From contig CAJAQL010000006.1 in assembly GCA_903944135.1 (NCBI GenBank), positions 9,425-73,424 of the forward strand: a DNA stretch of 64,000 nucleotides. Direction: 5' to 3'. The notes beneath the pieces were generated by a model. That model made no database searches. It worked only from the letters and a program-made list of their open reading frames with translations, and was not told the origin of the DNA. The DNA comes from an uncultured Parcubacteria group bacterium. Lineage in GTDB: Bacteria; Patescibacteriota; Minisyncoccia; UBA6257; 2-01-FULL-56-20. Below, one piece after another: positions 4,185-62,856 of this stretch; within the stretch, counting starts at the first letter, position 1, and every line of letters starts with the position of its first letter. The position numbers and the translations under genes are program-made.

Positions 4185-4215
4185 AAAACGGCCACGGAAA
4201 AAATCCGTGGCCGTT
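4185..4215. terminator. Bidirectional terminator between convergent genes
   Basis: Hairpin aaaacggccacgg-aaaaaat-ccgtggccgtt flanked by A and T runs. Confidence 0.6.
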
Positions 4216-4228
4216 GCCTCACGTGGTC

Positions 4229-5771: not shown

Positions 5772-6347
5772 CTACAGCGCGGTGCGGATGAACTCGACGC
5801 CGATCGCCATGAGGATAAGGCCCATCATTTTACCGAATACCACAACCTCTTTTTTGCCGAATACTTTCAGAATGTATGGCGCGAGGCAGAAGACGATATA
5901 GTTTATAAGGAGATTCGCAAGGATGCCCGCGAGCGTCAGGAGATATCCGTATTCTTTGGCGAGAATGATGACCAAACTGATCATGCCTGGACCCGCAATG
6001 AGCGGCGTCGCAAGCGGTATGATGCTGGGTTCTTTTTCGTTTTCAGGTTCTTCTTTCTTCGTACTGAATTCTATGCCGAAAAGTATTTTAAACCCAAGCG
6101 CCAAAAGGACCAGTCCGCCGGCAATGCGAAAACTTCCTATGGATATCTCGAAGACGTTCAAGATCGCATTCCCGAGGAGCATGAAAATGATGAGGATGAC
6201 TCCGGCATAGAGAATGGCTGATCGGGCGAATTTTTCTTTTTGTTCGCGGTTAAGCGAATGGGCAAAAGTGAGAAAGAATGGAATGTTGCCCACGGGGTCC
6301 ATGACGCCGAAGATCGCAAAAAAAACCTGAGAAAATAGAATCATCAT
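5772..6347 (-). CDS. marC: MarC family (UPF0056) integral membrane protein
   Basis: N-terminal MMILFSQVFFAIFGVMDPVGNIPFFL… is the conserved MarC start, and the protein has 6 predicted TM helices. Confidence 0.8.
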   Translation of the reverse strand: MMILFSQVFFAIFGVMDPVGNIPFFLTFAHSLNREQKEKFARSAILYAGVILIIFMLLGNAILNVFEISIGSFRIAGGLVLLALGFKILFGIEFSTKKEEPENEKEPSIIPLATPLIAGPGMISLVIILAKEYGYLLTLAGILANLLINYIVFCLAPYILKVFGKKEVVVFGKMMGLILMAIGVEFIRTAL

Positions 6348-6419
6348 CTTTTTGATTTTATCATAAGAGAAAAACGTTTCATGATAGCCGGATCTTTTCG
6401 GTGAGCGGGGATAGGCGGT

Positions 6420-6962: not shown

Positions 6963-8219
6963 TCAGGATTTTTTTGCAGCCGCGGTTCCGGCAACAAAGC
7001 CGGTGGTCCAACAGATCTGGAGACTATAGCCGCCGGATGGGCGGTCGATGTTCAGAATATCGCCGATAAGGTAAAGGTTCGGGAACAGGCGCGATCGCAT
7101 AGATTTAAAATCCACTTCATCAAGCGCAACGCCCCCGCTCGTTATAATTGCCTTTTCCGCGCCAAGCAATTTATCTACATGGAGGGGGATATTTTTTATG
7201 ACGCCGATGAGCTTCATTCGTTTTTCCCGCGCAACATTATTGCATTGGATCTCTTTCGCAATGCCGGCAAGTTCCATGACGATCGGAACCATGGCTCTGG
7301 GGATAAGATCCGGAAGGGCGTTCTGCAATTTTTTCCTATTATTGATCTTGAACAGTTTTTGGAGTTCCGCGTCGAGGGCTCCGTGATCTTCTTTCGGCAG
7401 GAGATCAAGGGAAAGAGCAACCTCGCCATATTTCAAAAGCTCTCCGATATCCTTGCTCATATTAAGGATGGTCGGACCGCTCAAACCTGCGTGGGTAAAA
7501 AGAATTTTGCCGTTCGCGGCATCCTGCTTTTTATTATTTTGCAAAACCGTTATTTTAATATCGGAAAGTTTCACACCCGAAAGTTTTTTTATCCATACAT
7601 CTCTCAGTGCGATCGGTACAAGCGAGGGGGTCGGTGCAATAATGGTATGTCCGATATCTTTGAGCCATGCATAACCGTCACCCGTAGAGCCGGTATCTGG
7701 ATGTGAGGTTCCGCCGGTCGCAATGATTATGGAACGACCCCGCACCGCGCTTGTGTTTTTGAGTTTTACTCCAATGAGTACGTCATGATCGCGCACTATT
7801 TTCGCTACGGGAGCATGGGAGCGCACCGTGACGTGGTATTTTTTCATATAGTTCAAAAGAACGTTCCATACCGATCGCGCGGAATCTGAAACGGGAAACG
7901 TCCGCAATTCGTTCTCCACTTTCGTATCCATACCGTTCTCGTGGAAAAAATCGAGAGTTTCTTTCACGCTCCATTGCGAAAATGCCGAAAAGAGGAACTT
8001 TCCGTCGTTTTTGAATTTTGCGAGAAATTTGCGGTTATCGAACTCTGAGTTCATCACATTGCACCTGCCGCCGCCGGTGATCAGCAGTTTTTTTCCGAGC
8101 GTATCGTTCTTTTCGAGGAGAATGACCTTGGCGCCTCTTTTTGCAGCGGTTCCGGCAGCCATCATGCCCGCTGGCCCTCCGCCGACCACGATGACATCCC
8201 ACGGAATTTTATCATTCAT
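6963..8219 (-). CDS. HI0933-family NAD(P)/FAD-dependent flavoprotein (BaiN/aminoacetone oxidase-like)
   Basis: N-terminal Rossmann VIVVGGGPAGMMAAGTAAKRGAKVILLEKN followed by LITGGGRCNVMN, characteristic of the HI0933 family. Confidence 0.85.
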   Translation of the reverse strand: MNDKIPWDVIVVGGGPAGMMAAGTAAKRGAKVILLEKNDTLGKKLLITGGGRCNVMNSEFDNRKFLAKFKNDGKFLFSAFSQWSVKETLDFFHENGMDTKVENELRTFPVSDSARSVWNVLLNYMKKYHVTVRSHAPVAKIVRDHDVLIGVKLKNTSAVRGRSIIIATGGTSHPDTGSTGDGYAWLKDIGHTIIAPTPSLVPIALRDVWIKKLSGVKLSDIKITVLQNNKKQDAANGKILFTHAGLSGPTILNMSKDIGELLKYGEVALSLDLLPKEDHGALDAELQKLFKINNRKKLQNALPDLIPRAMVPIVMELAGIAKEIQCNNVAREKRMKLIGVIKNIPLHVDKLLGAEKAIITSGGVALDEVDFKSMRSRLFPNLYLIGDILNIDRPSGGYSLQICWTTGFVAGTAAAKKS

Positions 8220-8286
8220 TAGCTATATAGTATCAGAAAAGAGACGCGGAACCTATGAATATCTGCGCAAGAGCTATACTGAGAAT

Positions 8287-8541
8287 ATGGTTTATTTTGT
8301 CTATCTCCTAGAGTGCACGGATGGCAGTATCTATACGGGCATCACGACCGATCTTGAGCGAAGATTCGACGAACATAAGAATAAAAGCGGCAGTCATTAT
8401 ACGGCGTCGCATGGTGCTCGAAAAATAGTTCATGCGGAAACCTATCCAAATCGTTCCGAGGCGTCGAAACGCGAAGCCGAGATAAAAAGCTGGCGTCGGG
8501 AAAGAAAAATAGAGCTGATCCGATCGAATAGATCGAATTGA
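8287..8541 (+). CDS. GIY-YIG nuclease superfamily protein (UPF0213-like)
   Basis: VYFVYLLECTDGSIYTGITTDLERRFDEH…KREAEIKSW matches the GIY-YIG and YTG motifs. The Met at 8287 is the likely start, because the upstream part of ORF 8011-8541 overlaps the convergent gene. Confidence 0.8.
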   Translation: MVYFVYLLECTDGSIYTGITTDLERRFDEHKNKSGSHYTASHGARKIVHAETYPNRSEASKREAEIKSWRRERKIELIRSNRSN

Positions 8542-8616
8542 TCTTCTTCCTGTTCGACAAATGAAAAAAATAGGATATAATCTCTGTAGAATAACTTTTC
8601 CAAGGAGGCAATTGAC

Positions 8617-8736
8617 GTGACTAAAGGATCTGCTAGCTTCCGACTTCCGACGGGGCAGGAATGGTGTTCACTCTTGCTGTTTCTGACGTTGGTCATCATG
8701 ATGATCTGTGTATTTTCCGCACATCCTCCTCGTTAA
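8617..8736 (+). CDS. Candidate 39-aa hydrophobic micro-protein with a GTG start
   Basis: Strong SD (aaggagg) 7 nt before GTG. It encodes VTKGSASFRLPTGQEWCSLLLFLTLVIMMICVF… and is followed by a hairpin plus T-run at 8748-8790. It is below the ORF-track size cutoff. Confidence 0.3.
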   Translation: MTKGSASFRLPTGQEWCSLLLFLTLVIMMICVFSAHPPR

Positions 8737-24861: not shown

Positions 24862-26541
24862 CTAGGGTAGATTATGCGCCTGTGAAAATCGCGCCAAATA
24901 GTCTTGTATATTAAGAACGTCCGGAAAACGCGCAACAAGGACTTTCAATTCAGCTTCCGTTTGACTAAGATTGGCCGTTACGCTTTCCGGCTGGACGAAC
25001 GGATCAACGTAAGTGGTCCCATATTTTTGTATCAAGCTTGCGTTTGCTGGCGTGTTTTTCATCATAATTACGGAATGGCCATCCCAATAGATCATTCGAA
25101 AATTGTCATGATAAAGAGCCGTAAAGAGAGGATTGTCGTCGATAACGATAAATTGTTCCCAGTAGGGCAATATTACATAATTGATTTTATATTTTTGATC
25201 GATAATCTGTTGCCAGTTGCTGTTGAGGTCTATCACCGAAAGATAATCCTGCACGGGCTGACCCCTGAAAACCTCCGAGCGGCCGTCGATCGCGACTTTT
25301 TCTTGCGGCCATAACGCCCAGATCAAATAGCCTCCATCGCTATAATCGTTAAAGAGAGGCCCCTGGATGCCATTGTGCTTAATGAAATTGACGGCATCGA
25401 CGGGAAGCGTGATGTTGCTGACGGGGCTGTCCGGCAACATCATGATTGCTTTTACGAGGAAAAGAACGCCAAATATGGATAATAAAATCGGGAGCAGTTT
25501 TGGAGAAAGTTTCTCCACTGTTCCGCTGAACGCGGACGAGATTGCTACGGCAAGCGGCACAATAACTACGAACGGCCAAAAGATGATATAACGGGCGGAA
25601 AGAAATGGAAGAATAGAAACGCCAAGAAATAGACCGAGCGTTCCGAGGTCGCGGCTTTCCTTTCTGACGCAAAAATACCAAACAAGAAGCGCGCCAAAAA
25701 CGATGAACTCCACCAAGAAGGCCTGTACGATCGGACTACTTAATGCCGAAAGCGCGGGGCGATATTGGGTTATGTTGAAAATTTTCGCAAGCTCCCGTAC
25801 ATAGAAAGCGTAAAGAAAAATGCGGTAGGTATTTGGATTCAGGAAAGACAATCCGAGAGACAATAACGTCGCTCCGGCAAGATAGTTCGTTTGCTTGATG
25901 GTCAGGATGGTTCTTCCGAAATAACGGGGAAATTTCAGTTGAATCTTCAATGCGATCGTATAAAAAATCAAAACAACTAAACCAAGAAGAAAACTTGCAT
26001 GTATATTCGCCCAAAGCCATACGATAAAAAGAGTCGGGACGAGATAAAGAACGCGAGGATGTTCCCGATATTTTTCCAGGCAATAGATCAAAAGCACAAG
26101 GAGAAAGGTTGCAATGACTTCGGGGCGAGTCTGCCAGAAAGAGATGCTCGAATAGGCTATGATAAAACCTACGAGAAGCGTGACATAAACATTCGCCCCT
26201 TTTTTGATTGCTAACCGCACGATAAAGAAATAGCTCAGGGATGCAAGCAGGGCAGCGAATCCGATCAATGCCCAAAATCCGAAACTCGAACTAACGAGAT
26301 AGAAAACAATCTCCGCAAGCCATTCATGCGTGACCCACATCGCTCCTGGTGCGGTATATGAAAAAATATCCGCAGTGGGCACGTGTCCGCTTTCAATAAT
26401 TACCTGGCCGGTTTTGATGTGATAAAACGTATCCGAATCCTTTATTTGGTGAAATGAAAAAAGGAAGATAAGCAATAAAAAAAGAACGAAGAGCATTTTT
26501 CCCCACCATGTTGTTTTAAAGGAAACAAAAGATGGTTTCAT
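24862..26541 (-). CDS. Large polytopic membrane protein (possible GT-C-type glycosyltransferase; function uncertain)
   Basis: 559 aa with about 12-14 predicted TM helices and a first periplasmic loop carrying D/E residues (DSDTFYH…HEWLAE). Confidence 0.45.
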   Translation of the reverse strand: MKPSFVSFKTTWWGKMLFVLFLLLIFLFSFHQIKDSDTFYHIKTGQVIIESGHVPTADIFSYTAPGAMWVTHEWLAEIVFYLVSSSFGFWALIGFAALLASLSYFFIVRLAIKKGANVYVTLLVGFIIAYSSISFWQTRPEVIATFLLVLLIYCLEKYREHPRVLYLVPTLFIVWLWANIHASFLLGLVVLIFYTIALKIQLKFPRYFGRTILTIKQTNYLAGATLLSLGLSFLNPNTYRIFLYAFYVRELAKIFNITQYRPALSALSSPIVQAFLVEFIVFGALLVWYFCVRKESRDLGTLGLFLGVSILPFLSARYIIFWPFVVIVPLAVAISSAFSGTVEKLSPKLLPILLSIFGVLFLVKAIMMLPDSPVSNITLPVDAVNFIKHNGIQGPLFNDYSDGGYLIWALWPQEKVAIDGRSEVFRGQPVQDYLSVIDLNSNWQQIIDQKYKINYVILPYWEQFIVIDDNPLFTALYHDNFRMIYWDGHSVIMMKNTPANASLIQKYGTTYVDPFVQPESVTANLSQTEAELKVLVARFPDVLNIQDYLARFSQAHNLP

Positions 26542-52362: not shown

Positions 52363-52657
52363 GAACGCGGGGGTTTATGGCATTTGGCATTGCCGCTAGA
52401 ACCAACAAATTCGCTGGCCCCAGAAGGAATCATGAACGATGATCATGGTGGAATGACGACGGTGACGTCGACGGAACGAAGCTATGCAATACCAGCTTCG
52501 TGAGACGTACCGAAACCGCATCTGCTGTGGAGGCGGCAAACGCCGCTTGTGCTGACCATCACGGCCCCTCATCTCTTGTACCATAGGGCTGCTCCTTTCT
52601 CTGAAGAAAATTCAAACACATATCTGAATTTAAAGCAAGAACCGCGAAAGAAGGAAT

Positions 52658-53182
52658 TTACCGCGACGTATTGCTGCGATGTTTTTCAAGATTATCACGA
52701 TGCGTCTCTATGGCATCCAACTTACGTAAGAAGTCTTTTATAAGATCCGGCATGTCATAGAGCGAGATCTCGGGTCCTATCTTTGCATATCGCCCAATAA
52801 TCTCCAGAGCATTTCGCGTCGCTTCGGGCAGTATCGCCGAATTCTCCTCGAGTTCCCCGAATGTAACATGTTGAGGATCCCTGAAAAGTTCCGGCACGGG
52901 TTCGACCGTCAAACCGTCGATCAAAATCTTTCTTGCATCTTTTAATTTTTCGATCGCTTCCGAAAGTTCGCCATCGGGAATATCGGTTTTAAAAAGCGAT
53001 CCTTCAGGATAATTTACGGCGCCCACCTCATGGTCCGACGCTTTCGTATCGAATTCAAAATCGGTCTTTTCGCCTTGTGCGAGCTCCTGCCGCGCCGCGC
53101 CCGCAACCGCAGGATCGATCGGTTTCCCTTCATTTGCCGCCAAGTATTCCAAAAATTCCTTCCCTGGATTTTCTGTTTTCAT
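52658..53182 (-). CDS. Hypothetical acidic protein
   Basis: 174-aa ORF with no motif recognised. Confidence 0.5.
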   Translation of the reverse strand: MKTENPGKEFLEYLAANEGKPIDPAVAGAARQELAQGEKTDFEFDTKASDHEVGAVNYPEGSLFKTDIPDGELSEAIEKLKDARKILIDGLTVEPVPELFRDPQHVTFGELEENSAILPEATRNALEIIGRYAKIGPEISLYDMPDLIKDFLRKLDAIETHRDNLEKHRSNTSR

Positions 53183-53239
53183 ACTTACATCATATCAAAA
53201 TAACCGCACAAACAACACTTACATGAAGCCATCAATTGA

Positions 53240-53842
53240 TTATATGGATTTCAATATCCTCAGAATGGCCTTCTGATATTCCGGATACCTGATATCATGG
53301 GGTGCGTCCTTCACCACAACCAGCTTCGAACGTTTCGCCAAGCTTGCCGTCTCTTCGCACCGTATTCTGAGCGAAGGGAATTTTTTCCCTTCGAATCCTC
53401 CATAAAATACAACCGAGGGGATCTGCAGATTTTGAGCCGCTTCCCTGCCGCTGCGTTGCTTGATTTCAGCCAGTCTCCTCTTGCCGACGAACCGGTCGAT
53501 CCAAGATTTCATTTCGGGAGACTTCATCATCGGAAGATCCTCCTTGAAATCGGGACTCAGCGAACAAAGATAGACTTTTTTAGGATGAAGATCGTTCGCC
53601 GACAAGAGGGCGATCACCGCACCATAAGAAAAACCAAGCAGATAATTTTCTTCCGATCTGTTTTTCTTGTAAAAACCCTTGAACTCGGCGACATAATCGT
53701 TCATCGTCCGATAATTCCATGTGATAGGCGCGATCGATACCCTAAAACCTTTTTGCTCCAAAAATCTTCGAAGCCAAAAAAACGAACGGCTCGTAGATGA
53801 CATCTTGAAACCGGGGACGATAAAGAAAGTTTTACGAGTCAT
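53240..53842 (-). CDS. Putative alpha/beta-hydrolase fold protein
   Basis: GFSYGA fits the GxSxG nucleophile elbow; otherwise unassigned. Confidence 0.45.
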   Translation of the reverse strand: MTRKTFFIVPGFKMSSTSRSFFWLRRFLEQKGFRVSIAPITWNYRTMNDYVAEFKGFYKKNRSEENYLLGFSYGAVIALLSANDLHPKKVYLCSLSPDFKEDLPMMKSPEMKSWIDRFVGKRRLAEIKQRSGREAAQNLQIPSVVFYGGFEGKKFPSLRIRCEETASLAKRSKLVVVKDAPHDIRYPEYQKAILRILKSI

Positions 53843-54161
53843 GGATTCCGAAGTATACCTATATGAACATTGAAAATCTCAAGTGGAGATGGTTGAGGAA
53901 AGTTGGAACCAGCTGGAAAGCTTCATTTTGAAATGGGGTGAGGTGATAAAAGATCGAGAAATGACGAGAATTAGCTAGAAATCCTCCTCCGCTAATACAC
54001 ATGATTAAGATTGAACCTAGTAAGAAGGAATGCAGGATAAGGCGGCCTCATAAAAAGAAATCTATCGCCAAAGCCTCACTATTAGAGAAATTAAGGGGTT
54101 GATCGCTTTAAGCTCTTAGAGATCAGCTAGTAATTCCGTACGTCCCCCTGAATCAAAAACA

Positions 54162-54635
54162 ATGTTTCAAAACACATACGAACAACGCAAGGGAGCTATC
54201 CGAGCCCGCATACATATCAACGATTACATGCGTCGCTATGCGTGGGAACTATTCAAGGGTAATCGACGACCCGTGATGAGAACGCTCTCGGACGCAGACT
54301 ATTATAAAAAGCTTTTCAGCGACCCTCTACACTCACCCATACGCTCAATGCTCGGCATCCCTTCCGGTGAGCTTTATAAATACTGCCAAGAGCTTGATTA
54401 TATCTCCTCAAACCTCGGTAGGGGTTTTATCTTCTATTTCATCTGCACTTGGTGCACTCGGAGGGTGAAATGCCTCTATGTTGACGAGAGTCTTGAGGCA
54501 ATGCTCTGCCGAAAATGTATCAAGCTTCCTTATCGACAGTCATCACGACCCGAACGGTACGCTTCGCGTTATATTCGGAGGCATCCAGAGCTGGTAAAAC
54601 GCTTAATTGATTCTGGCGAAATTCCTATTTATTGA
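54162..54635 (+). CDS. Hypothetical basic protein with a zinc-ribbon-like Cys cluster (island cargo)
   Basis: CTWCTRRVKC…CRKC; low GC. Confidence 0.5.
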   Translation: MFQNTYEQRKGAIRARIHINDYMRRYAWELFKGNRRPVMRTLSDADYYKKLFSDPLHSPIRSMLGIPSGELYKYCQELDYISSNLGRGFIFYFICTWCTRRVKCLYVDESLEAMLCRKCIKLPYRQSSRPERYASRYIRRHPELVKRLIDSGEIPIY

Positions 54636-54711
54636 ATACCTGCGCTCGGGTAGATGCATTTCAAGGGAATTATATACTTTGTAATATCGAACCTGTATAA
54701 TAAAAATATAA

Positions 54712-55560
54712 ATGGAGAAAGTTGAAATTGAAATAGAGTACGATGGTAAAGACGTAGAAGACGGAACTATGTCCTTAGAGGATATGATTCCAGCTCTACA
54801 AGGGCTGTCCAGCGCATATGGGAAGATTGCGATACTTCAAAATCCTGAGGCGCGTCATAATTTGCGAGTTACGGGAGTTGGAAAAGGAACATTCCATATT
54901 CTTATAGAAGCATGGAATCTAGCCGTTCAGAATAAGGATGGAATAATGCTTGCGGCGGCGATGACGGGAATAGCAGAGCCTTCCTTTAAGGTTGTGAAAG
55001 CGATAATTGGCGTAGCTACGACGACAAAGCACGTACAAAATAAGCCTTATACGGAAAAGATAAACGGAGTACAGCAGAGTATTACGATAACCAACTGTGA
55101 AAATGTCACCCTAGAAGTACCGTTGGAAATCTATCAGATTTATAAAGACGGCATGATAAAACAAGACTTGAATAAAATTACTGGATCGCTCGCGGAAGGG
55201 AAAATTGATAGTACCACTCTTAAAGCGAAATCAGAAAAAGAAAGCATAGAGGAAAAAATAACCTTGTCGGAGAAAAAGTTTTTTGAGGTAGAGGAAATCG
55301 TTACTACGGTTACAAAGGAAATGTGGCTTACGGGAGTTTTGAACTCTCTCGCAAAATCTACTAACCGAGGCAGCTTTTATCTCAACGACGGAACACGAGT
55401 ATCTTATCATTTGGGAGGCGATAATCCAGAAAAATTGTATCAGTTCTTTATTTATAAAGGGATAGTGCGAGTGAAATGTACGGCTTCCTTGGACGAGAAT
55501 CTAAAGCCAATACAAATCGAGATTTTGGAGATAAATCAGGTTGAACAACCACTTTTGTAG
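54712..55560 (+). CDS. Hypothetical 282-aa protein (island cargo)
   Basis: Co-directional 76 nt downstream of the previous gene; no recognised motif. Confidence 0.5.
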   Translation: MEKVEIEIEYDGKDVEDGTMSLEDMIPALQGLSSAYGKIAILQNPEARHNLRVTGVGKGTFHILIEAWNLAVQNKDGIMLAAAMTGIAEPSFKVVKAIIGVATTTKHVQNKPYTEKINGVQQSITITNCENVTLEVPLEIYQIYKDGMIKQDLNKITGSLAEGKIDSTTLKAKSEKESIEEKITLSEKKFFEVEEIVTTVTKEMWLTGVLNSLAKSTNRGSFYLNDGTRVSYHLGGDNPEKLYQFFIYKGIVRVKCTASLDENLKPIQIEILEINQVEQPLL

Positions 55561-55593
55561 TTATCCGCATTTCGTATTCACTTGCATGATAAA

Positions 55594-56967
55594 TTAATTC
55601 GTTGATTGAGCGGCCAAGGTATAGGCTTGGATATATCCAATCCCCGCCGTGAGTCCAGATTCTCCGAGCGTCGGGATACCTAAAATACATGGCCCCTTGT
55701 TCAAGATAGCAACACCACCAGAATTGCCATGGTCGATTGCTGCGTTGGTTTTATAGATTGGGCCGGGAAGAATCCCGCTTATGATTCCTTGGGTTACGGT
55801 TTCTGAAATACCGAGAAGATTGCCGGAGCTAGGATAGCCAAATATGGTAACAGTGTCTCCAACATTTACATTAGAACATCCTGAATGTGGAAATTCTGGC
55901 AGATTGTTAATGGCGGGAATAGGACTCAATGTAACTGACGACGGAAGCGGCGTATCGAGAGCAAAAATAGCAGCGTCCTCGTATGTATTTGGGTTATAAT
56001 GAGAATCGATTAAAGCTAACTTATAGTCTCCATAGCCTTCGTTATAACCAAAGTTTGGAGGCTCAGGATATACGGCGTAACAAGCAGGCAATGGCCCACC
56101 TTGGCTTGCCAATTCTGCTTCTGCAAGAACGTGAAAATTCGTTTCAATATCTATATTAGTTGAAGCAATGTTCTTGGTATTCGAACGAAATGAAACACCC
56201 GATCCACTGACCACAACGCTTGAATTAGATGCGTAGCAATTTATTTCAACGATAGTTGGCTCGATTTGATTAATAAGAGATGGCGTAAGGCCCTCGCTTG
56301 CGTTCAGTGAAGTATTTTGAGGCTGCTGAACGGTTGGCGACGAGTTCTGTTGTGATTGCGGTGCGCTATTGTTGCTGGACGTTGTAAAACTTAATGAAGA
56401 TAAAAATGTGTTCTCTAACTGCTGATCTTCTTGTCCTTCCCAATAAAAATAATCAAGCATGTATAAATCATTTCCCTTCAATACATCCATTCCTGATTGA
56501 TATAGAATCGGCTGTGATTGATCAACCTGATTGGAGCTAATATATTTTATGGCCGGGTAGCCCTTAAAGGTTGTTAAACTCGAAGAAACAACTTTGGAAC
56601 CGCCGGAAGTCCCGGTGTATTGAAGCTCGGCTTCAAGATCGGCATCGGCGGACGCGGCTGAACCAGCGAATGCGGATGCAATGTGAGTCGCCTCAAGAGA
56701 GGGATTATTTATACCGTTACCAATACTCCCCCAAGAATAATTGTCATCAGATACGCTATTCCCCTTTGTAAGCTCTTGAGAGGCTGAGGAGTAAGTCGGC
56801 TGATCGGGGAAATAAACGGAGAAGCTGCCATGCTCCAAATTATAACCTTGACCTCCGTTAGCGCTACTGGAAGAATTTTCGGAGATAATAACAACGCCCC
56901 AAATAATAAATGCTACTATTCCTAGACCTATCCAAACTCCTTTGTACGATTCTTTTGCTTCCGGCAT
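55594..56967 (-). CDS. Membrane-anchored trypsin-like serine protease (S1/S1C-like)
   Basis: N-terminal TM, S/N/Q-rich linker, catalytic-triad context NFHVLAEAE (His), AIFALD (Asp), and TNAAIDHGNSGGVAIL (GNSGG Ser motif, as in HtrA TDAAINPGNSGGPL). Confidence 0.7.
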   Translation of the reverse strand: MPEAKESYKGVWIGLGIVAFIIWGVVIISENSSSSANGGQGYNLEHGSFSVYFPDQPTYSSASQELTKGNSVSDDNYSWGSIGNGINNPSLEATHIASAFAGSAASADADLEAELQYTGTSGGSKVVSSSLTTFKGYPAIKYISSNQVDQSQPILYQSGMDVLKGNDLYMLDYFYWEGQEDQQLENTFLSSLSFTTSSNNSAPQSQQNSSPTVQQPQNTSLNASEGLTPSLINQIEPTIVEINCYASNSSVVVSGSGVSFRSNTKNIASTNIDIETNFHVLAEAELASQGGPLPACYAVYPEPPNFGYNEGYGDYKLALIDSHYNPNTYEDAAIFALDTPLPSSVTLSPIPAINNLPEFPHSGCSNVNVGDTVTIFGYPSSGNLLGISETVTQGIISGILPGPIYKTNAAIDHGNSGGVAILNKGPCILGIPTLGESGLTAGIGYIQAYTLAAQSTN

Positions 56968-56981
56968 GGGTGATGTGTGGG

Positions 56982-57704
56982 CTATTCGCTTTGAATATCA
57001 TTCGCCTCTTTTTCTGCGGAAGCGACGCACTCATTCGCCTTCTCTTGCGCTTGGAGACCTTGTACTCCACCCGCTTCGCTTAGATTGGAAGAAGAAGAAC
57101 ATTCTTCATTTTGTGATTGTTCATATTCAATCTGGGATTCGATGCTCGCACCAACAGAGCGGGCTTGATCAATCTTCTGTTGCGCCTCTGCATTTTGCAA
57201 AGTGATTTGAGCAGCTTGCAATAAGGGATTGTAAAGCGCACTCAATAGATTTTGCTCTCCCGTATATTCACTCATACCAGTTCCCGCCCCAACTGTTGCT
57301 CGGAGTTGAGCATAGCGCGTTTGCAGACTATATAGATTTTGTGTTGAGTTATTTATCGCCTCACTGTCAAAGCTGAGATAGCTCTCGTTTGCGAATTGCG
57401 TTTGCTGATCCAAAATAGTAGGCGTTGGACATCCTGCCGGAACTAATGATAATTGGCTCGCGTTGATAATTTCTGAGGGGCAGTTGGAGGGCGTAGAAAC
57501 GATTGTGTTTGGTTGGGATGTGGATTGAGACGTTGAGCTCGATGAATTAACTGAGGGTGAAGTATTTGATTGTAGCGCTTGAGTAGCCATACTGATCGCT
57601 TGGGTGGCAAGGGTCTGTGCCTGCGCACTATTGGCCGTACTGGGGTTTGAAAGCAGCGTCAAAACAAGTTGGAGAAGAACAACTATTGAAGATAAATTTG
57701 CCAT
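56982..57704 (-). CDS. Secreted low-complexity S/T/Q/N-rich protein
   Basis: Signal peptide MANLSSIVVLLQLVLTLLSNPSTANSA, then an S/T/Q-rich region and a Q-rich coiled C-terminus. The start is at the Met at 57704. Confidence 0.55.
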   Translation of the reverse strand: MANLSSIVVLLQLVLTLLSNPSTANSAQAQTLATQAISMATQALQSNTSPSVNSSSSTSQSTSQPNTIVSTPSNCPSEIINASQLSLVPAGCPTPTILDQQTQFANESYLSFDSEAINNSTQNLYSLQTRYAQLRATVGAGTGMSEYTGEQNLLSALYNPLLQAAQITLQNAEAQQKIDQARSVGASIESQIEYEQSQNEECSSSSNLSEAGGVQGLQAQEKANECVASAEKEANDIQSE

Positions 57705-57949
57705 GATATTTTTATTAAAATTTTTATTCCATGGCGTGGAGATCGGCCTCAATAACACAAAACTCCACGCTGTGCCTGAGCCTTGCGGCTCCATAGCCCT
57801 TTCGAGCCATGACCCTAGACGAGTGGCCAAACGTGGAGTTTGGTATCGTCTAGGGTGTTTCGCGCCATGCCCTGATTGCTCAAAGATTTAGGCGACTTAT
57901 ATTAAGTTGTGCTTTCAATGTAACATCGTTCCGACGACTTGTTAAGTCG

Positions 57950-58789
57950 ATGGAAAAATGTCGAAAAATGTCGGATAATAAAGTAACTACGGTGGACTAT
58001 AAAAAAATCGGCCTGCGATATAGAGAACGTTTAGCAACGCTTCGCGCTACGCCAGATTTTGATGAATTTTTGATCGAAACGATAAGACTCGATATGGAGT
58101 TGGAGCAATCGAGGAGAACCGACGGGTATAATTTCGAACCAGCAATTAAAATTCATATCGAGAAAATGCGCCTCATTGAAGGCCTGATTAAAAAATTCCA
58201 TTTGCCGCCACCTTTCCGCAACATCCTTGAAAACCCTTTTTATCCAGAAGCTAATGGCCTATACTTTGCACCTTATCGAATCGATCCGCAGGTTATCCCC
58301 GTTGCCAAAGGTGAATTTGAGCATCCACGCATTTCTGGCGAACCCCTCGATTCGTTAACGGTCACGATTTACGGCAGGCTTTCTACGGAAGATTGGGCTT
58401 CTCTAAAAGAACGTATTGAACGTTTGCAGGACGTAGCTTTCGATACCGAGGCGATTCATCCATTCCGACGTAGTAAAAATATCGATGAGAAGGTTAGAAT
58501 TGTTAAAGAAATGGCTACTCGAAAACCAAGGAGAGTCCGTAAAGAAAATGTCGAGCATAATTATATCGACATTCTTGAGAAATCAATGGGAAAATTATCC
58601 ATCTCAAAAAAGCGAGAGTTTTCTAAACTACATCCTTGGAGCGTGCGAAAGGTTATCGAGAATGGCAGGAGCAGTGCAGATGTGGCCTCACAACTCGGTC
58701 GGCGTAGCAAATCAAAAGATAAGGGCGCTGCTGTCCGAAAGACGCTTTCGCGCTTCAAGAATGCAAAAAAGCGGACAAAAGCACCATAG
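57950..58789 (+). CDS. Hypothetical 279-aa protein with a basic C-terminus (island cargo)
   Basis: No motif recognised; Lys/Arg-rich tail. Confidence 0.5.
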   Translation: MEKCRKMSDNKVTTVDYKKIGLRYRERLATLRATPDFDEFLIETIRLDMELEQSRRTDGYNFEPAIKIHIEKMRLIEGLIKKFHLPPPFRNILENPFYPEANGLYFAPYRIDPQVIPVAKGEFEHPRISGEPLDSLTVTIYGRLSTEDWASLKERIERLQDVAFDTEAIHPFRRSKNIDEKVRIVKEMATRKPRRVRKENVEHNYIDILEKSMGKLSISKKREFSKLHPWSVRKVIENGRSSADVASQLGRRSKSKDKGAAVRKTLSRFKNAKKRTKAP

Positions 58790-58934
58790 CGTTTATTTTT
58801 AAATAAACGTCACAATAGAAATTAATGTCGGGTTTATGATGGCCGTAATGAAATGATTACGGTCATTTTCATTGCACGGTGGCAAAGAAATCGTCATTAG
58901 CCCTCCACCGTGCTAGTGACGATTTCTTTATCTC

Positions 58935-59093
58935 ATGATCGGCACCGAACCCACTATGCTTTCTCTTGGACAATTAAGAGCTATTGATACAGAAAACGAA
59001 CTCTCGGATGAGGAGCTTCTTGAGCTACGCGACGCACTCGACCCTATTCTCGAAAGAATCCTTAATCGCTATTTCAATAGCATATTAGAATAG
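58935..59093 (+). CDS. Candidate 52-aa acidic helical micro-protein
   Basis: MIGTEPTMLSLGQLRAIDTENELSDEELLELRDALDPILERILNRYFNSILE; below the ORF-track cutoff. Confidence 0.3.
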   Translation: MIGTEPTMLSLGQLRAIDTENELSDEELLELRDALDPILERILNRYFNSILE

Positions 59094-59133
59094 GCCTCTT
59101 GCTATGGTATAACTAAGCGGTTAGAATAAAGAC

Positions 59134-59286
59134 ATGGACAAAGAGACGATCAGTAAGGTTATGCGGGAAATGGGGCGGCGCGGAGGGCTTGCGTCCGTAA
59201 ATGCTCGTAAGAAAAGCGGGAAGATGAAGGAGTGGTCTCAAAACGCTATAAAAGCTCGCCGCCGAAAAAAGAATAAAAAAGCATGA
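59134..59286 (+). CDS. Candidate 50-aa basic micro-protein translationally coupled to the recombinase
   Basis: MDKETISKVMREMGRRGGLASVNARKKSGKMKEWSQNAIKARRRKKNKKA. Its TGA stop overlaps the recombinase ATG (ATGA at 59283-59286). Confidence 0.4.
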   Translation: MDKETISKVMREMGRRGGLASVNARKKSGKMKEWSQNAIKARRRKKNKKA

Positions 59287-60863
59287 GCGAACTCAACGCC
59301 ATAATTTACTGCCGCGTCTCGTCGGAACGACAAAAGAACGAGGGTCACGGTCTCGACGGCCAAGAGCAACGTTGCCGTCTCTATTGCGGGCAAAAGCAAT
59401 ACAAAGTTGAGCGGGTCTTTAAGGACAGCTTCACAGGAGGCGGAGATTTTATGGAACGTCCGGCGATGGGAGACCTACTCGCCTACCTCGACAAGCATCC
59501 GCATCGGGATAATTACGTCGTCGTTTTTGATGACCTCAAGCGATTTGCCCGCGACACCGTTTTCCATTTGAAGCTCCGCCGCGAATTTAAGGCGCGGGGC
59601 GTTAAAGTGGAATGCCTTAATTACAAATTCGATGAATCCGAGGAAGGCGAGTTCATCGAAACCGTTTTAGCCGCACAGGGCGAGCTTGAGCGGAAGCAGA
59701 ATCGCCGCCAAGTAATTCAGAAGCAGAAAGCGCGTCTTGAGGCGGGCTATTGGCCTTTTTGCCCGCCGCCAGGCTATCGTCAGCCCAAAACAATGGCCCA
59801 TGGGAAGCTACTTACACCACACGAGCCAGAAGCGACGATGATAAGAATGGCCCTCGAAGGATTTGCGACAGATCGCTTCGAGACACAGGCGGATATGGCT
59901 CACTATTTGGGAGAACAAAATTTCGTCGGCAAAAGCAGAGTTCCCTTCCAGTTGGCGAATCGCTTATTGGCACGAGTTTGGATATATGCCGGATTTATCC
60001 AATATGAACCATGGGAAGTAATGAGGCGAGAAGGTCATCATCAGCCCCTCATTGACTTAGCGACCTATCACAAGATTTTGCGAAAACTCGAAGGTCGTAG
60101 CCCCATAAGGACAAGGGCGGATATGCGTGAGGATTTTCCTTTGCGCCACACCCGTATCGTCTGTAGTAACGGCCATCCTCTTACAGCCTCGTACACGACC
60201 AAAAAGAAGGGCTATAGGAAGCCTTATTATCGTTGTTCTAATAGGACTTGCCCCGAACATACCAAAAGCATCCCTGCTGAGCTTATATTGGCGCAATTCA
60301 AGGCTATGTTGCAGGAAATTCGCCCAAAGCCCCTTATTCTTAAAATCAGCGAAGCGATGCTCTATGAAAAATGGGAACGGCGCGTGGCCGAACGAGCCAA
60401 TAACGAAAAAAGGGAGGTTGGTGAAATTATAGGGATTCAAACGGAGATACGCGACCTCTCAAAGCTTGCACGAAAGGCAAGTAGTGAGCGCGTCCGGCGA
60501 GAGTATGAAAAGCAGATTGAGGAGCTTGCGGCGAAAGAGGAAAAATTAACAGAGAAAAACGATCCGGTGAAGAAGCCGAAAATCGAGTTTAGAACCGCTC
60601 TACAAATGGTGTTTGATTATCTAAAAGACCCATATACCAAGTGGGTTGAGGGCGATTTGAGCGAAAAAAATCTAGTGCTAAACCTCGTTTTTGAGGGTCT
60701 CGTTTTCTATGACCGAGGATTTGGATTTAGAACCGCTCCTTTGTGCCTTCCCTTAAGGGTTTTTGAGCATTTTACTACCTCTAAATTACAGGGTGTGGAG
60801 ACGGGCGGAATCGAACCGCCGTCTAGTAATGAAGCCAATGAGCCGTCTACGGGTGTAGTTTAA
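59283..60863 (+). CDS. Large serine recombinase (resolvase catalytic domain, recombinase domain, zinc ribbon)
   Basis: IYCRVSSERQ places the catalytic Ser in the resolvase N-domain. Long recombinase domain, Cys-containing zinc-ribbon segment (CSNGH…CSNRTCPEH) and coiled coil; 526 aa. Confidence 0.85.
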   Translation: MSELNAIIYCRVSSERQKNEGHGLDGQEQRCRLYCGQKQYKVERVFKDSFTGGGDFMERPAMGDLLAYLDKHPHRDNYVVVFDDLKRFARDTVFHLKLRREFKARGVKVECLNYKFDESEEGEFIETVLAAQGELERKQNRRQVIQKQKARLEAGYWPFCPPPGYRQPKTMAHGKLLTPHEPEATMIRMALEGFATDRFETQADMAHYLGEQNFVGKSRVPFQLANRLLARVWIYAGFIQYEPWEVMRREGHHQPLIDLATYHKILRKLEGRSPIRTRADMREDFPLRHTRIVCSNGHPLTASYTTKKKGYRKPYYRCSNRTCPEHTKSIPAELILAQFKAMLQEIRPKPLILKISEAMLYEKWERRVAERANNEKREVGEIIGIQTEIRDLSKLARKASSERVRREYEKQIEELAAKEEKLTEKNDPVKKPKIEFRTALQMVFDYLKDPYTKWVEGDLSEKNLVLNLVFEGLVFYDRGFGFRTAPLCLPLRVFEHFTTSKLQGVETGGIEPPSSNEANEPSTGVV

Positions 60864-61122
60864 CGAAAGTTAGACAGGTTTTGATCCGTAAGTGTCGCGC
60901 CAACCACAGGATCGTCGAATGGCGTTAAGTTCCCTTATATAAGACCGGCGATGGACCCAAGGAACCCGGATCCGCCGATCCCGACGTCGGTCAGCCGATT
61001 AGGCAAACGCGAACGCCGGAAGCTGCAACTTTTGTGTTGGCAGTTTAAATGATGCGACAAGTACGTCGTCGCCCACGACCCGCAAGCTCATGGAACATCA
61101 CTATCGAAGCCAGTGCGTCCCC
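60796..61122 (-). ncRNA. ssrA: tmRNA (ssrA)
   Basis: Minus-strand 5' GGGGACGCACUGGCUUCGAUAG… matches the tmRNA 5' consensus. Acceptor stem with G3·U70, T-arm GGCGG-UUCGAUU-CCGCC and 3' end CGUCUCCA (identical to B. subtilis ssrA). The tag reading frame is …CAG CUU CCG GCG UUC GCG UUU GCC UAA, giving …QLPAFAFA-stop; CCA is not encoded. Confidence 0.8.
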
Positions 61123-61213
61123 AAATTGCGCTTTCGCGCCGAATATAGAATAACATAAAAATACAAGAAAAGCAATATTCCTGTTGTTCCGTTGCAAAAC
61201 AGAATCTAAAAAG

Positions 61214-61285
61214 CCTGGATCCCCGCTTTCGCGGGGATGACAGAGGGAAAATAATAAAGCAAAAATTATTTTCCCTCTGTCACTT
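61214..61285. repeat. GC-rich palindromic repeat unit plus inverted repeat
   Basis: ggatccccgctttcgcggggatgacagagggaaaataa…ttattttccctctgtcac. Confidence 0.7.
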
Positions 61286-61826
61286 TCTCCACATCCGCGC
61301 GCTTCAAAAGCTCGGTCTGCAAGGATTCGGCAAGTTCGCGATCGATGGCCGGGAAGATGCCTTCCGAGGTATCCTCTTCACCTTCTTTTGCTTCTTCATG
61401 GCCGGCTGTAAGGATCGCGAGGCGCGCTACGCCCCAGATGCGATCCGAAATACCCTGTTCAATGTCCACATCCTGGATCTGCCGATACGGTATGGAGATC
61501 TCTTCTTTACTGAGGATCCCCCGCCGGATCTTCAATGCGTCGTCACTGAGCATGAATACATAGTTCACATAGGTAAGATAGGTGATGAAAAACGTAAGAA
61601 CAAACGTAAGAACAAATAAAGCCCATACTCCGAAAACGATAAAAATGCTCCATGGGGCGAAGGGTGTTTTCGCAAAAATCCCGCTCCCCTGCGCGATGGC
61701 GAGAAAAACAGCTCCGATGAAGATAATAATGCTCGGCGCGATCTGTTGGGAGATAAAAAGCAGGAACGTCTTATGTCCAAGTTTCTGATAAACGGAAGAA
61801 GGCGCGACGGCCAGCGTTGTTTCCAT
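61266..61826 (-). CDS. Membrane protein with a bacterial PH (bPH_2/YdbS-like) domain
   Basis: Two TM helices flanking LSDDALKIRRGILSKEEISIPYRQIQDVDIEQG… matches the bPH_2 pattern. Confidence 0.6.
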   Translation of the reverse strand: METTLAVAPSSVYQKLGHKTFLLFISQQIAPSIIIFIGAVFLAIAQGSGIFAKTPFAPWSIFIVFGVWALFVLTFVLTFFITYLTYVNYVFMLSDDALKIRRGILSKEEISIPYRQIQDVDIEQGISDRIWGVARLAILTAGHEEAKEGEEDTSEGIFPAIDRELAESLQTELLKRADVEKVTEGK

Positions 61827-61850
61827 GGATTCAGTATAACATAAAAGATA

Positions 61851-61965
61851 TCCCCTCTGTCATTCTGAGCAATAACGAAGAATCCTGCATTCGTCCGAAA
61901 AAATGATCTCTCGCGATATTCCCATCTTCGCTGAAACTACGATGGGCAGGCGGAATGACAGACCT
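61851..61965. repeat. GC-rich palindromic repeat units
   Basis: ctctgtcattctgagcaataacgaagaatc…ggcggaatgacagacc. Confidence 0.65.
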
Positions 61966-62557
61966 ATATTCTTCATGCTATAATGGCCTCATGCCCCCCA
62001 TGAACAACAATCGATTTCAGCGTCGGCCGATGCCGATCTTACCGCCGCGGCCGCTCATGAACCATCAGATCACCGCACTGGAACTTCGCGTGGTCGGTGA
62101 GAACGGCGAAAATCTCGGCGTCATTAGCCGCGATCAGGCGATCGCTTTAACAAGGCCCGAAGAAGGTATTGATCTTATCCTGATCGCTCCCGCGGCGAAA
62201 CCGCCGGTTGCGCGCATCATGAGCTATGACAAGTTCCGGTACGAAGAAGCGAAGCGCGAGAAGAAAGAAAAGGCAGCCCAGAAGAGCGCCGAAATGAAGC
62301 ATGTGCAGATCACGGTTCGTGCCGCACAGAACGATCTCATGGTGAAAGTCCGCCAGGCGGAAAAGTTTTTTGCCGAAGGGCATCCGATCGAAGTGGTGCT
62401 CCGGCTCCGCGGCCGCGAAAAACGGAACAAGGACTTAGCGATGGAGAAGCTGAAAGAATTCCTGAAAATGCTTCCCACAGAACACCGCGAGCTCCATCCC
62501 CCGCGCTTCGGACAGAACGGCCCGAGCGTCCAGATCGCCAAGATCATAAAAAGCTAA
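61955..62557 (+). CDS. infC: Translation initiation factor IF-3
   Basis: ALELRVVGENGENLGVISRDQAIALTRPEEGIDLILI… and a C-domain (VQITVRAAQNDLMVKVRQAEKFF…). The true start is uncertain, since infC often uses a non-ATG start. Confidence 0.8.
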   Translation: MTDLYSSCYNGLMPPMNNNRFQRRPMPILPPRPLMNHQITALELRVVGENGENLGVISRDQAIALTRPEEGIDLILIAPAAKPPVARIMSYDKFRYEEAKREKKEKAAQKSAEMKHVQITVRAAQNDLMVKVRQAEKFFAEGHPIEVVLRLRGREKRNKDLAMEKLKEFLKMLPTEHRELHPPRFGQNGPSVQIAKIIKS

Positions 62558-62583
62558 GACGGATTCCAGAACCAGAAAAAGAA

Positions 62584-62618
62584 ACCCGGGTCCCTGCTTC
62601 CGCGGGACGACAATAAAC
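62584..62618. repeat. GC-rich palindromic repeat unit
   Basis: cccgggtccctgcttccgcgggacgacaataaa. Confidence 0.6.
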
Positions 62619-62682
62619 CCATTGCAAAAAAAGCGGCTATCCTGTATACTCAACTTCGTTATTTAAACCATCATTTCTTATC

Positions 62683-62856
62683 ATGTCTTTTTCGAAAGCT
62701 TTGGCGAAACGCGTGAAGATCACGAAGAACGGTAAAGTCGTCCGCCGCCCCATGGCCGTGGACCATTTCCGCACGCGCAAGAACGCACGAAAGATCCAGA
62801 GCAAGCGCAAAACGCTTTCGCTCGACTATCCGATGAAAAAGATAATCAACTACTAA
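62683..62856 (+). CDS. rpmI: 50S ribosomal protein L35
   Basis: 57-aa basic protein MSFSKALAKRVKITKNGKVVRRPMAVDHF… in the canonical infC-rpmI-rplT order; below the ORF-track cutoff. Confidence 0.75.
   Translation: MSFSKALAKRVKITKNGKVVRRPMAVDHFRTRKNARKIQSKRKTLSLDYPMKKIINY

Follow-up and report, generated by a model that had tools for sequence, protein, structure and literature searches.

What placed a large serine recombinase (LSR) with its C-terminus encoded antisense to ssrA, the gene for transfer-messenger RNA (tmRNA), and what is the low-GC DNA that lies behind it? The question is raised by the window analysed here, a stretch of 64,000 nucleotides from an uncultured Parcubacteria group bacterium (assembly GCA_903944135.1, contig CAJAQL010000006.1, positions 9,425 to 73,424), for which an original prediction made from the letters alone had proposed that an island had integrated at the ssrA 3' end. 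Our comparative analysis indicates that window positions 53888-60793 very probably constitute a small integrative mobile element of the Candidate Phyla Radiation (CPR, or Patescibacteria; Paceibacteria-type), inserted at ssrA by its LSR and carrying the element attachment site, attP, within the open reading frame (ORF) of that same recombinase. The following features delimit this 6.9-kb element and its target:

53858..53912, forward strand: attL, with the host B arm up to 53882, the core GTGGAGA at 53883-53889 and the element P' arm from 53890
53883..53978, forward strand: orphaned 3' end of the LSR gene, 31 codons and a stop (VEMVEESWNQLESFILKWGEVIKDREMTRIS, then stop)
59283..60863, forward strand: LSR in its integrated form, 526 aa, with family matches in Pfam, PHROG and NCBIfam
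60765..60825, forward strand: attR, with the element P arm up to 60794, the core GTGGAGA at 60795-60801 and the host B' arm
60793/60795-61122, reverse strand: tmRNA gene (ssrA), from ARAGORN and a full-length match to Rfam RF00023 (106 bits)

The relatives of the flanking infC locus are all CPR metagenome-assembled genomes (Paceibacterota, Parcubacteria, Minisyncoccia), several of them with complete chromosomes of about 0.8-0.9 Mb, and the order tmRNA (reverse), bPH_2 protein (reverse), infC, rpmI, rplT and NUDIX (reverse) is kept in some 40 genomes. The sequence past the 3' end of ssrA is different in nearly every genome compared, which marks this point as a variable hotspot. The predicted insertion of an LSR-mobilised island at ssrA is supported by a relative devoid of the island, by the attachment arms and by circular relatives. 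The closest relative (locus L002, with a translation initiation factor IF3 98% identical) possesses both flanks and lacks the 6.9-kb island: it aligns to 52493-53887 and 60794-62761 at 87-88% nucleotide identity, while the 6.9 kb in between do not align to it at all. Homology thus stops at 53887 and restarts at 60794, at the last bases of ssrA, and three further loci (L003-L005) are likewise without the island. Between the same two points L002 holds an 871-bp segment of its own (1404-2274) with a 251-aa ORF, which by inspection probably encodes a coiled-coil and PAS protein. This segment presents GTGGA at its left (GTGGAAAG) and right (GTGGAGAC) borders and no evident likeness to the P or P' arm, and it could be a relic of another insertion at the same site. 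A cleaner pair of occupied and empty sites is provided by two other relatives, in which the attB reconstructed from the B arm beside attL in L012 coincides with the unoccupied tmRNA site observed in L007 at 28/30 positions.

A direct repeat of the ssrA 3' end had been anticipated at the distal border. What stands of this is the heptamer GTGGAGA, found at 53883-53889 and again at 60795-60801, but repeat and fuzzy searches yielded nothing longer, and the tyrosine-type model of a displaced tRNA fragment was rejected because no repeat beyond 7 bp exists at that border. Across elements the core is in fact the 5 bp GTGGA, extended to 7 bp in the window copy; sequence data resolve it only to these 5-7 bp. 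As read from the sequences, the GTGGA of the plus strand at 60795-60799 complements the UCCAC with which the tmRNA ends, made up of three bases of the acceptor stem, the discriminator A and a C. A crossover within GTGGA at the tmRNA terminus leaves the mature tmRNA intact and generates no long repeat; accordingly, the mature sequence is preserved through the discriminator base and only the 3' trailer is exchanged.

The arms on either side of the core are far more informative than the core itself. The P' arm, GTGGA(C/G)ATGGTTGA..AAAGTTGGAAC, occurs once in the window, where no occurrence is expected by chance, and is kept in L012 (two copies), L024, L026, L027, L011 and the circular contig L043. 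The P arm, ...CTCTAAATYACAGGGT/GTGGA, which also has a single occurrence in the window, is present in all LSR-bearing loci and missing from unoccupied sites, and the arm on the element side, ATTTTRCTACCTCTAAATCACAGGGT/GTGGA where the island meets tmRNA, has the same distribution. On the host side, the B' arm corresponds to the acceptor 3' strand and the T-arm of the tmRNA. The reconstructed junctions contain ...CTCTAAATTACAGGGTGTGGAGATGGTTGAGGAAAGTTGG... for the window attP and ...GAAAATCTCAAGTGGAGACGGGCGGAATCG... for the window attB. Conserved attL and attR arms were identified in six independent elements, and the junctions give island sizes of 4.9-7.4 kb across elements. The occupied and empty pairs, together with the circular forms described below, are consistent with integration by LSR-mediated recombination of attP with attB.

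Base composition adds little to this argument. The island had been described as low in GC against flanks of about 55%; the dip is real (0.445 versus 0.496 for the remainder of the window, with 0.433 for the cargo at 53888-59282 and 0.487 for the LSR gene), but the flanks have about 50% GC, not 55%. A patch at 25-27 kb (GC 0.426 in 2-kb windows) is as low as the island. It coincides with the gene for a 559-aa polytopic membrane protein beside tRNA-Gln (24862-26541, reverse strand), and was rejected as a second island, having sodA-like and isochorismatase-like neighbours and no recombinase. Given that this patch is equally low without any recombinase, a low GC is by itself no mark of an island in this genome. 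Composition is insufficient as proof of island status, and it is the comparative evidence that, at the level of sequence, proves the insertion.

The recombinase itself shows the domain order of LSRs, with an N-terminal resolvase, a recombinase domain and a zinc ribbon with an embedded coiled coil. It matches Pfam PF00239 Resolvase over residues 6-155 (1.4e-24) and PHROG 95 'integrase' (6.6e-59), comes slightly under the cutoff for Zn_ribbon_recom (3.9e-5; 24.4 versus 25.3 bits) and has distant CcrB/XisF-type matches as well, while PF07508 Recombinase is precomputed in many of its homologues. The catalytic motif YCRVSS is present and invariant in the family alignment, and R11, S13, R88 and R91 (in the numbering of its homologue P0011) are invariant among 56 family members. 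The AlphaFold2 model of P0011 (mean predicted local distance difference test, pLDDT, of 86.7) displays long helices at 354-430, past the zinc ribbon, and its best Foldseek matches are full-length serine integrases (9dxh, Bxb1 9iu2, PhiC31 9tep and LI 4kis; E = 2.6e-17).

The antisense overlap between the LSR C-terminus and the 3' end of ssrA was read correctly in the original prediction and involves the last 69 nt of the gene, that is, 22 codons and the stop. Residues 1-504 of the integrated protein are encoded by the element, residues 505-506 (VE) lie across the core, and residues 507-526 (TGGIEPPSSNEANEPSTGVV) are antisense ssrA. At the opposite end of the island, the orphaned tail is in frame with LSR codon 504 in the circular form. 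Read in the LSR frame, the distal arm follows the pattern V(E/D)MVE.SWN.LES.I(L/F).WGE.....R.M..., with its stop at the same place in 8/8 copies; this frame is open in all eight, and both other frames contain stops. Variation by codon position (233/178/343) is highest at the third, serine codons switch from AGY to TCN with the residue unchanged, and the amino acids W-N-x-L-E-x-[FWY]-I-[LF] are kept across LSRs that are 45-62% identical. By these signs, the island's left end encodes in frame a conserved, predicted native C-terminal helix of 29-31 residues.

Homologues of the reconstructed attP-form protein (the 504-aa body joined to the native tail, 535 aa) tell the same story from the protein side. 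The search returned 1,627 homologues at E <= 1e-20, whose C-termini split into two classes past a conserved ...LPLRVFE....S.SQGV(E/D): among the best 120, some 82 end in antisense T-arm translations (GGIEPP, AGIEPA, TGLEPATPSLQMRCSTR) and about 15-19 in the native tail. Integrated-form tails in relatives run from 2 to >40 arbitrary residues, as in the ...SEMVL that precedes the stop at a tRNA-Thr. The closest native-tail protein is P0011, 62% identical, which resides on an 8,509-nt contig (L043) with a 30-nt terminal overlap, the trace that a k=31 assembly leaves of a circle. Genes for tRNA and tmRNA are absent from this contig, which has an uninterrupted attP with arms nearly identical to those of the reconstructed window attP. 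A second circle (L045; 12,376 nt, 55-nt overlap) has an intact attP within an uninterrupted LSR, again without any tRNA or tmRNA, and carries Prim-Pol/AAA_25 and ParB_N. Comparison thus shows attP to sit within the LSR ORF, such that integration swaps the native tail for 20 ssrA-antisense residues. A search for the orphan-tail motif in 80 metagenomic loci gave a single match (L087), the pattern being probably too strict for distant members; beyond about 45% identity it is hence the protein C-termini that speak for a general split ORF.

On this evidence, the LSR would recombine the element attP with an attB made up of the last ~25 bp of ssrA (T-arm, 3' acceptor strand and discriminator) and its trailer, the exchange taking place inside the GTGGA core. 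In the P0011 model the core codons fall in a linker of low confidence (pLDDT <50, residues 507-510) that connects the C-terminal domain with one terminal helix (509-539). The attP site thus occupies a predicted flexible linker of the LSR just before the conserved helix. The circular element would encode an LSR of about 535 aa with its native tail, whereas after integration the tail codons are stranded 6.9 kb away at attL and the enzyme ends in the 20 residues encoded antisense to ssrA. Excision would rebuild the full gene.

Two further observations concern the target gene. The tag frame of the window tmRNA contains a 1-nt insertion (an extra T, alignment column 110) with respect to L002, L003 and L004, with the result that the predicted tag is ANTKVAASGVRVCLIG rather than ANTKVAAPAFAFA, each followed by a stop. 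The extra T is also present in L001, an independent assembly of the same organism, so that either the degron end of the tag is truly altered in this lineage or an error is common to both assemblies. In addition, a conserved 120-nt trailer lies downstream of tmRNA (L007 1998-2109, L012 1210-1320, L011 7071-7189) and holds a terminator-like hairpin (AAATCGAYCTC-CAAAA-GAGGTCGATTT, with a run of T after it on the tmRNA strand). Where the site is occupied, this trailer is found at attL, several kb away from ssrA, and integration thus parts ssrA from its native terminator. No equivalent hairpin is obvious in the B arm of the window.

Large serine recombinases act on att sites about 40-50 bp long, exchanging strands at a dinucleotide in the centre, and depend on an accessory factor for excision. 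The window element conforms to this class in having a short core and no long direct repeats, and its enzyme resembles the PhiC31, Bxb1, A118/LI, TP901-1 and CcrAB integrases in domain order, predicted fold, very short core and location of the integrase gene beside the att site. It departs from them, however, in targeting the 3' end of tmRNA (tRNA in relatives) in a CPR host, in having an attP inside the ORF, with a C-terminus that changes on integration, and in the extra C-terminal domain and terminal helix of its family, as seen in the P0011 model. An element ORF that contains attP and whose product changes on integration is the hallmark of split integrases. In the archaeal tyrosine integrases of SSV1 type, the gene spans attP; insertion at a tRNA gene splits it and excision makes it whole again. 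The arrangement seen here is alike in that the integrase gene spans attP and would be restored by excision, but SSV1 encodes the tyrosine recombinase of an archaeal virus and is split deep inside the gene into two non-functional parts, whereas the window LSR swaps only its last ~30 codons and keeps its catalytic and DNA-binding domains intact.

A related precedent is the integration-dependent immunity seen in the mycobacteriophages BPs and Brujita (Broussard 2013; Hatfull 2022, PMC9262239), where attP lies in a phage ORF and integration at a tRNA gene changes the C-terminus and the stability of the product, with no separate recombination directionality factor (RDF). The likeness extends to the ORF-embedded attP and to the C-terminal change at a tRNA gene, but in these phages the affected protein is the repressor, the integrase is of the tyrosine type and the removed tail is an ssrA-like degron, while here it is the serine integrase itself that changes. 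Islander-type tyrosine islands (Williams 2002; Hudson 2015) share with the window element the ssrA 3' target, the ssrA-proximal integrase (here overlapping the t(m)RNA gene by 69 nt), the preserved target and the tandem and remnant insertions of a hotspot. They differ in their recombinase and in the displaced t(m)RNA fragment: instead of a distal 3' repeat of tens of bp, the window element shares only 5-7 bp, and while the Islander attP carries a replacement copy, the window tmRNA survives because the crossover occurs at its last bases. No tyrosine integrase (Phage_integrase) was found among the island ORFs in Pfam, PHROGs or NCBIfam, the only recombinase being of the serine type. Reviews state that phages with serine integrases (Int-S) do not use t(m)RNA targets. 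Mageeney 2020 (PMC7192596), in agreement with the earlier remark that an LSR at ssrA is unusual, reported that TIGER flagged 14/297 serine-integrase (S-Int) elements in t(m)RNA genes, a usage that had 'not been reported previously' and needed proof, and those elements were presented without a dedicated clade, an ORF-embedded attP or CPR hosts being described. Our literature search found no paper joining CPR/Patescibacteria with serine-recombinase elements of this kind.

The element belongs to a family that appears to have moved between hosts. LSRs 65-90% identical to that of the window adjoin ssrA in six other Patescibacteria genomes (L012, L013, L021, L024, L026 and L027), in which IF3 is 64-70% and the adjacent bPH protein 42-57% identical, core genes ranging over 40-75%. 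In some genomes the LSR reaches 87-90% identity where the adjacent core proteins reach only 43-72%, and this far greater similarity of the recombinase points to horizontal spread. The L012 locus has two attL-type ends and an attB-like copy in which the B arm and GTGGA are joined to 16 nt from the 3' end of tmRNA (224-348, 1210-1342, 2294-2330), and L011 retains an LSR fragment and a remnant attL with orphan tail 440 bp from tmRNA (5998-6369, 7060-7190, 8209-8300); repeated and leftover att sites of this sort are what a reused hotspot typically shows. Scanning metagenomes with the LSR family alignment produced the 80 loci mentioned above, 55 of them with the LSR 3' end on the contig. In 32 of these 55, a convergent tRNA (22) or tmRNA (10) overlaps or adjoins the end of the LSR ORF, and most of the remainder hit a contig break within ~100 nt. 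The tRNA targets of these metagenomic relatives include Ala, Thr, Arg, Leu, Ile, Val, Lys, Ser, Tyr and Met.

The genes that the element carries are listed below:

54162..54635, forward strand: 157-aa Cys-cluster (CxxC...CxxC) protein, backbone, first gene past attL
54712..55560, forward strand: 282-aa protein, variable cargo, with matches to PADLOC PDC-S42, NCBIfam LAPAL_fam and phrog_3243
55594..56967, reverse strand: 457-aa membrane-anchored trypsin-like serine protease, variable cargo, by Pfam
56982..57704, reverse strand: 240-aa secreted S/T/Q-rich protein, backbone, start taken at the ATG at 57704
57950..58789, forward strand: 279-aa basic protein, with a 71% identical homologue in the L027 element
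58935..59093, forward strand: 52-aa acidic protein, conserved upstream of the LSR
59134..59286, forward strand: 50-aa very basic protein, its stop overlapping the LSR start (ATGA)

The Cys-cluster and secreted-protein genes, the 52-aa and 50-aa ORFs and the LSR make up a backbone, arranged as the P' tail, the Cys-cluster gene, a variable slot, a secreted-protein gene preceded by an RNA (LOOT, see below) and a diverging operon of small ORF(s) and LSR. Homologues of the Cys-cluster protein, for which only 5 clusters exist among 5.8 billion proteins, come first after attL in L012 (70% identical), L027 (76%) and L024 (44%). Some 10-20 nt past the orphan-tail stop, all copies have a (G)TACACAT motif (window 53990-54000; equivalents in L012, L026, L027, L011 and L043), which could be a promoter or operator element for this gene. 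Homologues of the 240-aa secreted protein are encoded at the corresponding place in L012, L024 and L027, and the protein encoded there in L013 is similar at its N-terminus. The 52-aa protein has homologues upstream of the LSR in L012, L013, L024, L026 and the circular L043, and the 50-aa protein, always directly upstream of the LSR, is 69-97% identical in L012, L013, L024, L026 and L027. Both small proteins may assist or direct recombination, as candidate accessory or directionality factors (RDFs).

The cargo had been taken as entirely uncharacterised and as a pointer to a novel defence module. Against the profile libraries used for the island proteins (Pfam, PHROGs, PADLOC and NCBIfam), the Cys-cluster, secreted, 52-aa and 50-aa proteins have no family match, nor does the 279-aa basic protein, for which a sequence search of the Protein Data Bank gave only noise. 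The ORFs are thus as described, but the 282-aa protein belongs to named, if uncharacterised, families. It matches PDC-S42 (9.6e-20) over residues 1-206 of a 302-position profile, leaving its C-terminus uncovered, and LAPAL_fam NF053583 at 75.5 bits against a cutoff of 60. In its structural model (pLDDT 88) only a C-terminal barrel resembling an oligonucleotide/oligosaccharide-binding (OB) fold has relatives, all of them generic OB-folds and uncharacterised phage proteins, and its homologues are sporadic stand-alone genes in CPR genomes. The suggested pairing of the Cys-cluster and 282-aa genes is not conserved, and a two-gene module was rejected, given that homologues of each occur without the other. 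The 457-aa protease matches Trypsin_2 (2.2e-7) and Trypsin (5.5e-5) in Pfam and, weakly and far under curated cutoffs, DegP/HtrA-type families; it was not found in the other elements. In those elements the variable slot holds an IS1595 transposase and a Dam methylase (L013), a Schlafen-AlbA_2/HATPase_c_4 protein (L024), two small-terminase-like proteins and a peptidoglycan-binding protein (L026), an XRE regulator (L012), or DUF3800 and a weak TIR match (L043), a mix that, judged by these family matches, resembles accessory or defence cargo. What remains of the proposed defence role is one weak PADLOC candidate, PDC-S42, of which we found no mention in a literature search; the other PADLOC matches are at noise level, and the cargo was rejected as a recognisable defence system.

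The RNA that precedes the secreted-protein gene belongs to the LOOT family (Rfam RF03000), and nine of the nine elements examined, the window and eight related ones, possess it:

57778..57894, reverse strand: LOOT RNA of the window, full-length, 73.4 bits against a gathering score of 46.4
L012: 6214-6350
L013: 6494-6614
L024: 6513-6626
L026: 6818-6933
L027: 5825-5940
L043 (circle): 510-627
L045 (circle): 4858-4978
L017: 4272-4388

The window match spans model positions 1-121 with the consensus four-hairpin structure. A covariance model of our own, built from the LOOT copies of the elements, matched 8 of the 80 metagenomic LSR loci and, in 812 kb of control sequence, only LSR-bearing loci; it found none in the 33 LSR-free infC loci or in the rest of the window. 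In 7/7 elements a signal-peptide or membrane protein is encoded 16-76 nt downstream of LOOT on the same strand, the distance to the 240-aa secreted-protein gene of the window being 73 nt, and in the window a promoter-like TTAACA-17-TACATT (57945-57917) stands 22 nt upstream of LOOT. LOOT may therefore be the leader of the secreted-protein operon or a small RNA (sRNA) processed from it, and may regulate this leftward operon. In L017, an LSR only 23% identical (7141-8694) also adjoins the 3' end of tmRNA, and LOOT is found 3 kb upstream of it on the LSR strand, which suggests that the pairing of LOOT with t(m)RNA targeting reaches past the close family. Rfam lists LOOT only as 'Gene; sRNA', and no discussion of it was found in the main text of Weinberg 2017, presumably its source paper. 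The link of LOOT to LSR elements and to the position of the secreted-protein gene is a new observation made here.

Several observations weigh against our reading of 53888-60793 as a mobile element with an ORF-embedded attP. The L002 site is not clean, since its 871-bp segment lies between the same two points, and in formal terms the window and L002 thus differ by a replacement. Conservation of the attB B arm from host to host is poor, an unusual trait for LSR sites. Neither an excised or circular copy of this very element nor an empty site from its own population was found: the closest free form has 62% identity, the sole 100% match to the 535-aa attP-form LSR is the integrated form, and the attP junction pattern had no match in IMG/VR. 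No transfer, replication or packaging genes were recognised in the window element with the four profile libraries, the only hint of defence is the weak PDC-S42 candidate, and NCBIfam contradicts the PADLOC role of the 282-aa family by naming it 'putative phage structural protein'. The presence in L002 of a different segment, and not simply of nothing, speaks for the most radical alternative, namely that no mobile insertion took place, the block being ancestral and deleted or replaced in L002 and others, and the LSR-ssrA overlap fortuitous. We regard this as almost certainly wrong, because the LSR is much better conserved than the adjacent core proteins, the arms are conserved and the breakpoints fall exactly at GTGGA in six elements, the L012/L007 pair agrees so closely, circular forms exist, and GC is 5-6 points under that of the rest of the window. 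It is somewhat more conceivable, if quite unlikely, that the element is a phage satellite or defective prophage requiring a helper phage for transfer. PHROG 95 classes the LSR as a phage integrase, PHROGs and NCBIfam place the 282-aa family among phage proteins, and the L026 element carries two tandem Terminase_2 genes (4215-5142; small terminase N-terminal part, 2e-11 and 7e-15), which hint at phage-satellite-like packaging in some family members. However, no capsid, portal, large terminase, tail or lysis genes occur in seven elements, and relatives in IMG/VR are almost absent, as is any Zot/pI ATPase. For the window island, the predicted lack of phage structural genes is upheld by Pfam, PHROGs and NCBIfam at E <= 0.1, a search that distant or novel proteins could escape and that revealed no capsid, portal, terminase or tail genes and no pI/Zot ATPase; an inovirus was rejected at this sensitivity for want of that ATPase, and a phage origin was rejected for want of structural genes, with only six, weak LSR relatives in IMG/VR. 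A plasmid-like episome that integrates, with the 279-aa basic protein, the Cys-cluster protein or both serving replication in the free form, is a rather unlikely reading, although less so than a satellite. Distant native-tail members do occur on circular or partial contigs with replication or partition genes (the Prim-Pol/AAA_25 and ParB_N of L045, a DnaG-type zinc ribbon in L044), and free circles such as L043 and L045 were assembled at all, but searches of the window element and of the 8.5-kb L043 gave no domain for replication or partition and no relaxase. Scans of Pfam and NCBIfam for the relaxase, coupling protein and type IV secretion system domains of integrative conjugative or mobilizable elements were also negative, the origin of transfer (oriT) not having been searched.

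For the element inserted by its LSR through an ORF-embedded attP, the question that follows is whether the exchange of tails matters to the enzyme. The variable integrated tails, of 2 to >40 residues, fit a tail that is lost and a tail that is irrelevant equally well, and in this respect they too count against a functional interpretation. The swap could be devoid of function, attP overlapping a dispensable LSR end simply because the element is compact, with both forms behaving alike; this is a real possibility, if one from which we lean slightly away. It fits integrated-form tails that are arbitrary in sequence and length and, in the model, a tail that is a separate helix on a low-confidence linker, outside the globular domain. 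It accounts less well for a native tail whose amino acids are kept across LSRs 45-62% identical, with excess variation at third positions and a stop at the same place, given that half-site binding could constrain only the first ~20-25 bp. The tail swap may thus alter LSR activity or stability, and convergent LSR transcription into ssrA may matter as well. A bolder proposal, which we advance tentatively and consider possible but not probable, is a built-in integration-state switch. Only the circular element would make a full-length, integration-competent LSR with its helix, while integration would cost the enzyme the helix and make the mRNA 3' end, stop included, a perfect complement of 69 nt in the abundant tmRNA. 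Tail loss and tmRNA antisense would together lock or silence the LSR until an element factor (the stranded tail peptide, the 50-aa or the 52-aa protein) permits excision, with LOOT as a dedicated regulator, and elements of this kind would form an undescribed class widespread in CPR.

The original prediction was right in its core, its defence-module aspect being the weakest, and what the locus carries is an integrative element of the serine-integrase kind, set apart by an unusual class of target, by an attP embedded in an ORF and by the orphan RNA associated with it. The insertion of large DNA cargo relies mainly on serine integrases, which by textbook accounts avoid tRNA-type targets. A large natural clade acting at the universally conserved t(m)RNA 3' ends, for which attP/attB pairs are readable from sequence, would add specificities and possibly broad-host landing sites, and an integrase whose C-terminus integration itself rewrites offers a simple candidate means of controlling directionality with no classical RDF. 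The orphan LOOT RNA gains a genomic home in these elements. More generally, the elements analysed in this work look active and appear to move between divergent lineages of CPR bacteria, a group whose mobilome is barely known.

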